DNA of 64,000 bases from Escherichia coli (GTDB taxonomy: Bacteria > Pseudomonadota > Gammaproteobacteria > Enterobacterales > Enterobacteriaceae): NCBI RefSeq assembly GCF_030013595.1, contig NZ_CP122768.1; one strand, written 5' to 3'. The notes beneath the pieces were generated by a model that was not told the DNA's origin, searched no databases, and saw nothing but the letters and a program-made list of their open reading frames with translations. The position numbers were made by a program, and so were the translations under genes. Of this stretch, positions 16,210 through 18,169 are shown in pieces; position 1 is the stretch's first letter, and the number at the start of each line of letters is the position of its first letter.

Positions 16210-17058
16210 ATGGCGACATACCTTATTGGCGACGTTCATGGTTGTTACGATGAACTGATCGCATTGCTGCATAAAGTAGAATTTACCCCTGGGATAGATA
16301 CCCTCTGGCTGACGGGCGATCTGGTCGCGCGCGGCCCCGGTTCGCTGGATGTTTTGCGCTATGTGAAATCCTTAGGCGACAGCGTACGTCTGGTGCTGGG
16401 CAATCACGATCTGCATCTGCTGGCGGTATTTGCCGGGATAAGCCGCAATAAACCGAAAGATCGCCTGACACCGCTGCTGGAAGCGCCGGATGCCGACGAG
16501 CTGCTTAACTGGCTGCGTCGCCAGCCTCTGCTGCAAATCGACGAAGAGAAAAAGCTGGTGATGGCCCACGCAGGGATCACGCCACAGTGGGATCTACAGA
16601 CCGCCAAAGAGTGCGCGCGCGATGTAGAAGCGGTGCTGTCGAGTGACTCCTATCCCTTCTTCCTTGATGCCATGTACGGCGATATGCCAAATAACTGGTC
16701 ACCGGAATTGCGGGGGCTGGGAAGACTGCGGTTTATCACCAACGCCTTTACCCGTATGCGTTTTTGCTTCCCGAACGGGCAACTGGATATGTACAGCAAA
16801 GAATCGCCGGAAGAAGCCCCTGCCCCACTGAAACCGTGGTTTGCGATTCCTGGCCCTGTCGCTGAAGAATACAGCATCGCCTTTGGTCACTGGGCATCGC
16901 TGGAAGGCAAAGGTACGCCGGAAGGTATTTACGCGCTGGATACTGGCTGCTGCTGGGGTGGTACATTAACCTGCCTGCGCTGGGAAGATAAACAGTATTT
17001 TGTCCAGCCGTCGAACCGGCATAAGGATATGGACGAAGGAGAGGCGGTCGCGTCTTAA
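16210..17058 (+). CDS. apaH: Bis(5'-nucleosyl)-tetraphosphatase (symmetrical) ApaH, 282 aa
   Basis: [23 protein letters not shown]... with metallophosphatase motifs. Confidence 0.93.
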
Positions 17059-17369
17059 ATCCCGTCGAGCATAAAATCTAATGCCCCTTTAATCAACGTT
17101 CGGTGCGCGCTGGCATCGCAAAATTTCGTTCCCAGCGCGTTAACTGGAACAGTTGCAGTCTCATGCGTCATGAGCACATATTCTTTGCCGTCTACCAGTA
17201 AAAGGATTGTGTTAAGCCGTTCTGGAGGGCGAATACGGATAAATCGTTCAATAGGTGTTAATGGAATAACAATACGGCGATTAATCTCACCAATAATGTC
17301 GCTGGTAACATCGATAACAAAGGGAAACGCGGCGTTCCTGCCGCGACTGCGGTATACCGTAAATTGCAT
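17055..17369 (-). CDS. ccdB: CcdB-family gyrase-poisoning toxin, chromosomal type, 104 aa, intact ORF
   Basis: [40 protein letters not shown]... aligns over its full length with F-plasmid CcdB (MQFKVY...VIPL...MFWGI); sits between apaH and folA. Confidence 0.85.
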
Positions 17370-17371
17370 CG

Positions 17372-17604
17372 CTAGAAGCTCCGGTACTCATCAGAGAAAC
17401 ATCCGGTTTCATCAGCCAATTGATTTAACGCAGCGATAGCTTCTGCGTTCTCTTCACGCCAACGTGTTGCTGCATGTTTTTTAAGTTCAGCATTGAGCGC
17501 AACCGTAAGGGTGCGCTCATATTTAAGCCTGCATCACGAGCGCGATTGACTAACTCACGGTCGACGGTGACGGTCACACTTTGTGTGGTACGTTTTGCAG
17601 TCAT
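17372..17604 (-). pseudogene. ccdA: CcdA-family antitoxin gene carrying an apparent 1-bp frameshift
   Basis: ATG at 17604: frame 1 gives MTAKRTTQSVTVTVDRELVNRARDAGLNMSA then out-of-frame residues and a stop after 56 codons; a second frame gives TLTVALNAELKKHAATRWREENAEAIAALNQLADETGCFSDEYRSF ending 2 nt before the ccdB ATG; both halves resemble CcdA; region is 233 bp, not a multiple of 3. Confidence 0.7.
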
Positions 17605-17689
17605 GATATCGTGCTCCTGTACAATTTATACGTCTAGTAAACACGGATATCTGCACGTATCAGTGATGCCGGAATTCTAATATACAAAC

Positions 17690-18169
17690 TTACCGCCGCT
17701 CCAGAATCTCAAAGCAATAGCTATGAGAGTTCTGCGCATCAGCGTCGTGGAATTCGCTGAATACCGATTCCCAGTCATCCGGCTCGTAATCCGGGAAATG
17801 GGTGTCGCCTTCCACTTCTGCGTCGATATGCGTCAGATACAGTTTTTGCGCTTTGGGCAGGAACTGCTCATAAACGCGACCACCGCCAATCACCATGATT
17901 TCTGGTACGTCACCACACGCCGCGATGGCTTCATCAACCGATTTCACCCACGTAACGTGATCGTCAGTACCCGGTTGACTGCTGAGGATAATATTTTTGC
18001 GTCCTGGCAGCGGACGACCGATGGATTCCCAGGTATGGCGGCCCATAATTACGGGTTTATTTAAAGTGTTGCGTTTAAACCAGGCGAGATCGGCAGGCAG
18101 GTTCCACGGCATGGCGTTTTCCATGCCGATAACGCGATCTACCGCTAACGCCGCAATCAGACTGATCAT
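17690..18169 (-). CDS. folA: Dihydrofolate reductase FolA, 159 aa
   Basis: ORF contains [36 protein letters not shown]...; start set at the Met giving 159 aa. Confidence 0.95.

Follow-up and report, generated by a model that had tools for sequence, protein, structure and literature searches.

A frameshifted ccdA beside an intact ccdB in the ccdO157-type islet between folA and apaH of Escherichia coli

The stretch of DNA analysed here (64,000 nucleotides of contig NZ_CP122768.1, Escherichia coli assembly GCF_030013595.1; hereafter the window) carries a ccdAB toxin-antitoxin islet between apaH, the gene for diadenosine tetraphosphatase, and folA, the gene for dihydrofolate reductase. This feature is a known chromosomal islet of the ccdO157 type, whose cassette, location and decay across E. 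coli were described in 2007-2009. In the window, the toxin gene ccdB is intact and the antitoxin gene ccdA is, as judged from its sequence, a pseudogene; this frameshifted ccdA allele is a minor new variant within the known decay process. Our preferred reading, to which we assign a probability of about 80%, is that the ccdO157-type cassette of the window is now decaying and non-functional, and that ApaH was not altered by its insertion.

The islet agrees with ccdO157 in location, gene order and near-identity to the O157:H7 genes. The interval between folA and apaH is the site of ccdO157 in O157:H7 (Mine et al. 2009, cited by PMC3184786, PMC7167474 and PMC7232551). Papers citing the same study (PMC3184786, PMC7167474, PMC7232551 and PMC2654758) describe a folA-apaH interval of only 77 bp with a repetitive extragenic palindromic (REP) element in K-12, a plastic spacer, and a ccdO157 cassette that is decaying across E. 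coli. The window shares with the O157:H7 copy the locus, the gene order, the spacing and a 4-bp overlap of stop codons. The two differ in ccdA, which is intact in O157:H7 and encodes a truncated 59-aa product in the window, and in four residues of CcdB. The O157 pair is established as a 77-aa CcdA that binds and neutralises the 104-aa gyrase poison CcdB and represses the operon. CcdB-O157 acts on gyrase, and Lon degrades CcdA-O157 (Wilbaux 2007, cited in PMC5543033). The same source gives ccdO157 a weaker expression than the F-plasmid ccd and no plasmid stabilisation.

The ccdA gene of the window lacks one G after position 17513 (+ strand), which shifts the reading frame after Ala31. The deletion was evident in alignments to three references, including the nearest complete genome (HCP5S3_I2) and a Hafnia plasmid. 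All close relatives possess a 234-nt ccdA with a 77-aa product, and apart from this single base the ccdA DNA of the window is that of the nearest complete genome, which encodes the same CcdA protein as O157:H7 (WP_000125566.1). The intact CcdA of the neighbour genome covers positions 2-71 of the 71-position Pfam profile PF07362 with E=1.3e-26. The 59-aa product of the window reaches only positions 2-27 (22.5 bits vs a cutoff of 22.4) and keeps the N-terminal DNA-binding domain only in part; the sequence for positions 25-71 lies in another frame (E=5.1e-16). Because the profile is split over two frames, with no single frame that holds both the DNA-binding and the CcdB-binding parts, the gene is classed as a ccdA pseudogene. 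No ATG, GTG or TTG codon is available for an internal restart of the C-terminal fragment before a TTG that would yield only 15 aa. With neither an in-frame CcdB-binding domain nor a canonical restart codon, the pair lacks the intact cognate antitoxin that defines a functional type II system. The original prediction had treated the cassette as intact, which the 1-bp deletion and its 59-aa product contradict.

A sequencing or assembly error in a cassette that is really intact might be suspected from two observations: the deletion site falls in a 2-base run, and the deletion was found in 0 of the 2020 complete genomes containing this stretch. However, the exact 59-aa product is public (STE03188.1, UniRef A0A376H8S2), being recorded in 73 index blocks and on 44 contigs of NCBI, ENA and Logan assemblies, the deletion occurs on two different flank haplotypes, and no other frameshifting indel was observed in 24 kb compared with the nearest relative, where the differences amount to 12 single-nucleotide polymorphisms (SNPs), one in-frame 15-bp indel and the ccdA lesion. 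Contig NJZI01000010 (GCA_002460785.1) is identical to the window across the aligned region, from the end of folA to the end of apaH. An error is thus extremely improbable, and the ccdA frameshift is real.

In the window, no damage is seen in the open reading frame (ORF) of ccdB, in its GGAG ribosome-binding site or in the promoter region; the start codon is kept, and GGAG lies ~9 nt upstream of it. The product spans positions 1-101 of the 101-position Pfam profile PF01845 (103.8 bits, cutoff 28.6; E=6.7e-30) and matches the solved CcdB structures 2kmt and 1vub with E values from 3.5e-16 to 1e-9. It is 96% identical to the CcdB of O157:H7 and 36% identical to that of the F plasmid, and the exact protein is present on at least 1000 public contigs. 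The four differences, from the window to O157:H7, are G10S, E28V, I44S and T54P. Thr54 is the sole residue that separates the window CcdB from the other alleles examined; at position 54, F CcdB and the other E. coli alleles have Pro, and E. albertii has Ser. The C-terminal Trp-Gly-Ile triad has been implicated in gyrase poisoning by F CcdB. Gly103-Ile104 are kept in the window, and the Trp of the triad is replaced by Asp102 in both the window and the O157 protein. O157 CcdB, with Asp in place of Trp, reportedly still works as a gyrase poison, so the missing Trp does not by itself decide the matter for this subfamily.

In the intact system, CcdA binds the operator through its N-terminal ribbon-helix-helix domain, and with its disordered C-terminus it wraps around CcdB and removes the toxin from gyrase. 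When free, CcdB traps cleavage complexes of gyrase with DNA. The frameshift would remove helix 2 of the DNA-binding domain together with the entire CcdB-binding C-terminus, and a functional antitoxin is not expected from the ccdA of the window. Despite its broken ccdA the lineage survives, and it has been repeatedly sampled; from this we infer that the CcdB of the window is probably not effectively toxic; viability argues indirectly against strong CcdB toxicity. The most likely cause would be an inert or weak allele, in which Thr54 replaces the conserved Pro. Alternatively, ccdB may be poorly expressed.

Several points weigh against a decaying, non-functional cassette. An intact toxin ORF beside a broken antitoxin is a decay order expected to be lethal if CcdB is active. 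The ccdB stretch with the Thr54 codon was found in 302 complete genomes and ccdA is undeleted in all of them, so that this distribution provides no independent sign that the allele is inert. The abstract of the 2009 study by Mine and colleagues reportedly distinguishes copies with both genes active, with an inactive toxin and an active antitoxin, and with both genes inactive; the intact toxin and broken antitoxin of the window would fall outside these classes. In addition, reviews draw on Mine et al. 2009 only for defective ccdO157 copies and for general decay.

These points leave room for a toxin that is still active, has lost its cognate antitoxin and is restrained either by plasmid CcdA or by low-level -1 recoding at an A-AAA-AAC heptamer within ccdA, a combined possibility that we regard as quite unlikely. 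In its plasmid form, CcdB would be fully toxic and the lineage would be protected in trans by the CcdA of an F-type plasmid or by a resistant gyrase (for example, GyrA R462C). The undamaged ORF, ribosome-binding site and promoter region of ccdB are consistent with such protection, as is the absence of the ccdA deletion from all 302 genomes with the Thr54 codon. Plasmid CcdA-F is described as neutralising CcdB-O157, and CcdA-O157 as unable to neutralise CcdB-F, in the account of Wilbaux 2007 that PMC5543033 contains. Plasmid records with a CcdB homologue number 2832, including 2169 from Escherichia. However, no second CcdA homologue was found within the 64-kb window, and a second lineage with the identical ccdA deletion has also lost ccdB (ERZ28599786 scaffold_54), which fits plain decay. 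Trans protection is judged unlikely; if it were true and due to plasmid CcdA, the chromosomal toxin would make the cell dependent on an F-type plasmid and enforce retention of that plasmid.

In the recoding form, a -1 ribosomal slip or A6 transcriptional slippage at A-AAA-AAC would restore the native frame at Lys42, which we consider very doubtful; the product, held to be just as doubtful, would be a CcdA with a 9-residue scrambled patch and an intact CcdB-binding domain. Only the mutant frame puts the heptamer in phase, Lys42 aligns by eye with residue 37 of CcdA-F at the start of the CcdB-binding segment, and the downstream coding sequence is undamaged, as its Pfam match indicates. The C-terminal 41 residues of F CcdA are said, in work of Bernard and Couturier from 1991, to suffice to antagonise CcdB. 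Conversely, in E. coli A-AAA-AAG is the stronger slip site and A-AAA-AAC a weak one. No Shine-Dalgarno-like stimulator was found upstream of the heptamer, and the RNA downstream of it folds no better than shuffled sequence (z=0.03). The heptamer also corresponds to native Lys-Lys codons read in another frame, and its phase is probably a coincidence. A decaying cassette with a harmless CcdB is thus preferred to either form of restraint.

Table 1. Coordinates of the features at the apaH-folA locus, given as positions of the window.
Feature	Position	Strand	Basis
Gene order rsmA-apaG-apaH (+), then ccdB, ccdA, folA, kefC (-)	16000-18600		ORF list
apaH, diadenosine tetraphosphatase, 282 aa, last gene of the rsmA-apaG-apaH operon	16210-17058	+	ORF, Pfam Metallophos
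TTAA, overlapping stop codons of apaH and ccdB, left edge of the islet	17055-17058	.	Sequence, RefSeq annotation, end of plasmid homology
ccdB, intact 104-aa ORF, gyrase-poison-type toxin	17055-17369	-	Pfam CcdB PF01845
Islet classed as acquired, ~605 bp, 46.9% GC vs 52-56% in flanking genes	17060-17663	.	Junction comparison, GC content
ccdA pseudogene, 233 nt vs 234 in relatives	17372-17604	-	Alignments; Pfam matches split over two frames
Undamaged but out-of-frame coding sequence for the C-terminal, CcdB-binding part of CcdA	17372-17533	-	Pfam
59-aa ORF from the ccdA start codon, 31 native and 28 out-of-frame residues	17425-17604	-	ORF list, Pfam
A-AAA-AAC heptamer, in phase in the mutant frame; speculative slip site	17476-17482	-	Sequence
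Site of the 1-bp deletion in ccdA	17513-17514	.	+ strand GGGT-GCGC vs GGGTGGCGC in relatives; coding strand GCGCCACC to GCGCACC
folA-ccdA spacer, 85 bp, 38.8% GC, presumed ccd promoter/operator	17605-17689	-	Sequence comparison
folA, dihydrofolate reductase, co-directional with and immediately upstream of ccdAB	17690-18169	-	Pfam DHFR_1 E=2.4e-60

The apaH-folA interval measures 631 bp in the window and 77 bp in K-12 MG1655, where folA ends at 50302 and apaH lies at 50380. As the original prediction had stated, the K-12 interval is thus below 100 bp and the ccd cassette fills the interval of the window; ccdA adjoins folA and ccdB abuts apaH, in the gene order of the RefSeq annotation of relatives. 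The description of a toxin-antitoxin insertion at a core operon boundary also holds, with the islet situated where the apaH operon and folA converge at their 3´ ends. The TTAA palindrome at the left edge contains both stop codons (apaH TAA at 17056-17058 on the + strand; ccdB as the complement of 17055-17057), which confirms the proposed 4-bp overlap of the ccdB 3´ end with the apaH stop on the opposite strand. An equal 4-bp overlap is given by the NCBI RefSeq annotation of the nearest complete genome (apaH 811-1659, CcdB 1656-1970).

The limits of the islet were placed by comparison with K-12 and Escherichia sp. E1V33. The islet stands in place of ~50 bp of the K-12-type spacer, the part containing the REP element. 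At the apaH end, the stop codon is common to all the E. coli spacer alleles, as are ~25 bp adjoining folA at the opposite end, so the REP type and a further type that carries a DUF4291 gene resemble the window in these flanks; the former is unlike the window in its 77-bp spacer and 280-aa ApaH, the latter in its ~1.4-kb spacer with a ccdA remnant. The closest plasmid copies found, from Hafnia alvei HUMV-5920 (CcdB 73% identical) and Klebsiella aerogenes (70%), both encode a 104-aa CcdB. The DNA similarity to the Hafnia plasmid begins in the promoter region with the motif ATCCGTGT (17641-17648), continues through ccdA and ccdB, and ends exactly at the ccdB stop codon. Unlike the islet of the window, the Hafnia ccdAB is plasmid-borne, has an intact ccdA and a TGA stop codon, and lies between unrelated flanks. 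The F-plasmid ccdAB resembles the window in its two Pfam families, in the antitoxin gene coming first, in the nearly abutting stop and start codons and in the Gly-Ile end of CcdB; apart from the low identity of its CcdB, it differs in carrying Trp99 where the window has Asp, and the window copy is chromosomal. We classify the islet, on its lower GC content and its homology to the Hafnia plasmid, as foreign DNA acquired at the folA-apaH site.

A scan of 17605-17689 against the sigma-70 consensus returned no strong ccd promoter, and a folA promoter-like site was found by consensus scan at 18228-18200. Operator-like repeats in the ccd leader were limited to 6-bp palindromes, which are uninformative. 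A terminator scan between the convergent genes found none, and only chance-level hairpins. Compared with K-12, which has the REP element, and with all outgroups examined, the ccd+ allele (17059-17689) is without a REP or terminator hairpin. Transcripts of the apaH operon may run antisense into ccdB, and those of folA into ccdAB. As no terminator lies between ccdB and folA or the ccd leader, ccdB is probably transcribed in the window. Three further observations concern hairpins. In ccdB, ~24 nt into the gene, a GC-rich hairpin and the T-rich tract after it (CGCGGCAGGAACGCCGCG TTTCCCTTTG, 17328-17345 on the - strand) resemble a terminator. Terminator-like sites in the region are near chance, with 4 found vs 2.0 +/- 1.5 expected. 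Enterobacter and relatives possess a strong GC-rich hairpin, likely a bidirectional terminator, in an apaH-folA spacer of 35-47 bp.

The C-terminus of ApaH differs between the window (282 aa, ending ...MDEGEAVAS) and K-12 (280 aa, ending ...KDLGEAAAS). The Asp in the window is due to a Gly-to-Asp change caused by a G-to-A substitution at 17033 that is private compared with the nearest genome, and the variant with Asp was found on 63 public contigs. The K-12-type apaH end (GGCGAA------GCGGCG) has lost one Gly-Glu repeat (6 bp) and carries an additional Val-to-Ala change. In E. coli the two ApaH ends follow the spacer type without exception, the long one with ccd and the short one with REP. A chimeric query that joined the K-12-type apaH end to the ccdB end found at best a 94.9% match with a 6-bp gap among 2022 ccd+ genomes, and the reciprocal chimera of the long apaH end and the REP spacer reached 97.0% with 4 mismatches among 2857 REP-type genomes. 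The short ApaH end travels with the REP spacer because the 6-bp loss lies within 35 bp of the spacer.

The original prediction had suggested that the insertion remodelled the ApaH C-terminus. For a cassette that rebuilt the apaH 3´ end and gave ApaH a new C-terminus speak the complete linkage of the long end with ccd and of the short end with REP in E. coli, and the position of the difference within 35 bp of the junction. The outgroups refute it. In a scan of one genome per species (80 apaH loci), a 282-aa ApaH ending in GEGEAVAS or near variants was found without ccd, beside spacers of 33-150 bp, in Enterobacter, Klebsiella, Raoultella, Kosakonia, Superficieibacter and Salmonella arizonae, and this long end is the rule in ccd-free Enterobacteriaceae; the ApaH of Enterobacter cloacae, for instance, ends in ...LDLGEGEAVAS next to a 47-bp spacer with a GC-rich hairpin. 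The 282-aa end is also kept in the DUF4291-type E. coli allele, which is without ccdB (NZ_CP134380.1). Furthermore, the homology to the Hafnia plasmid stops exactly at the ccdB stop codon, which indicates that no apaH coding sequence arrived with the cassette, and the loss of one copy of the GE-GE repeat accounts for the K-12 form. Because the 282-aa end is typical of ccd-free outgroups, the ccd-linked end is ancestral and the K-12-type 280-aa end is derived, on the REP-type haplotype, and we give a rebuilt apaH next to no credence. The comparison of apaH 3´ ends between ccd+ and ccd- strains, which had been proposed as a check, does yield ends that differ and are fully linked to the spacer, but the difference is not due to insertion, as the outgroups reverse its polarity. 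For the same reason, an identical C-terminus in ccd-free strains, which was to have refuted remodelling, would not settle the matter, since it ignores polarity.

Among 5426 complete E. coli genomes, the ccd cassette is present in 2021 and the REP-type spacer, with its 280-aa ApaH, in 2857. By subtraction, the third spacer allele is assigned to the remaining ~540 genomes; it was seen directly in one, NZ_CP134380.1. There, the 1425-bp spacer (6160-7584) encodes a DUF4291 protein (E=5e-68) and a hypothetical protein of 155 aa, and only 20 bp from folA it holds a diverged remnant of the CcdA C-terminus, 59 aa long. We take this allele to be probably class iii of the 2009 study. E. albertii carries the ccd cassette at the identical folA-apaH site. 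In E. albertii NBRC 107761 (3349-3895), the spacer is 1 bp shorter than that of the window, Ile-Pro stands in place of Met-Gln at the position of the ccdB start codon, and the alignment of ccdA is truncated; this copy may also have decayed.

Decay of the cassette by another lesion was observed in complete genomes that carry a 13-bp deletion in ccdB beside an intact ccdA, annotated as "frameshifted" in NZ_CP195442. The only frequency estimate is from an evenly spaced sample of genomes, in which 2 of 17 ccd+ rows have the 13-bp-shorter ccdB span. Loss of ccdB first, with ccdA intact, is the expected toxin-first route of decay. Both the 13-bp deletion in ccdB and the 1-bp deletion in ccdA are combined in the second lineage introduced above, ENA ERZ28599786 scaffold_54 (3078-3537), which accounts for 4 of the 24 contigs read and whose flanks are ~1% divergent from those of the window. 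The window and this scaffold are identical over ~700 bp, comprising the folA 3´ end, ccdA and the 5´ part of ccdB, so that this segment holds no markers to tell recurrence of the ccdA deletion from recombination. Neither the 1-bp nor the 13-bp deletion is confined to a single flank haplotype (~1% SNP divergence; ERZ28599786 scaffold_54 and positions 456-757 of the NZ_CP195442 region). Their presence on different haplotypes suggests that alleles have been exchanged at the locus or that it contains mutational hot spots.

Two observations were made away from the locus. The in-frame 15-bp difference from HCP5S3_I2 is an insertion at 8296-8310 of the window, inside a gene annotated in that genome as the type III secretion system effector EspY1. 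CP054241.1, an E. coli record of 834 kb that is listed among plasmids, carries apaH-ccdB and is probably a chromosomal fragment or a misclassified replicon.

The length polymorphism of ApaH in E. coli (280 vs 282 aa) serves as a marker of the spacer haplotype. If the toxin is active, addiction theory does not allow the antitoxin to be lost before it; the sampled lineage, with its intact toxin ORF and broken antitoxin, thus provides a cheap natural test of whether this common CcdB allele is still toxic.

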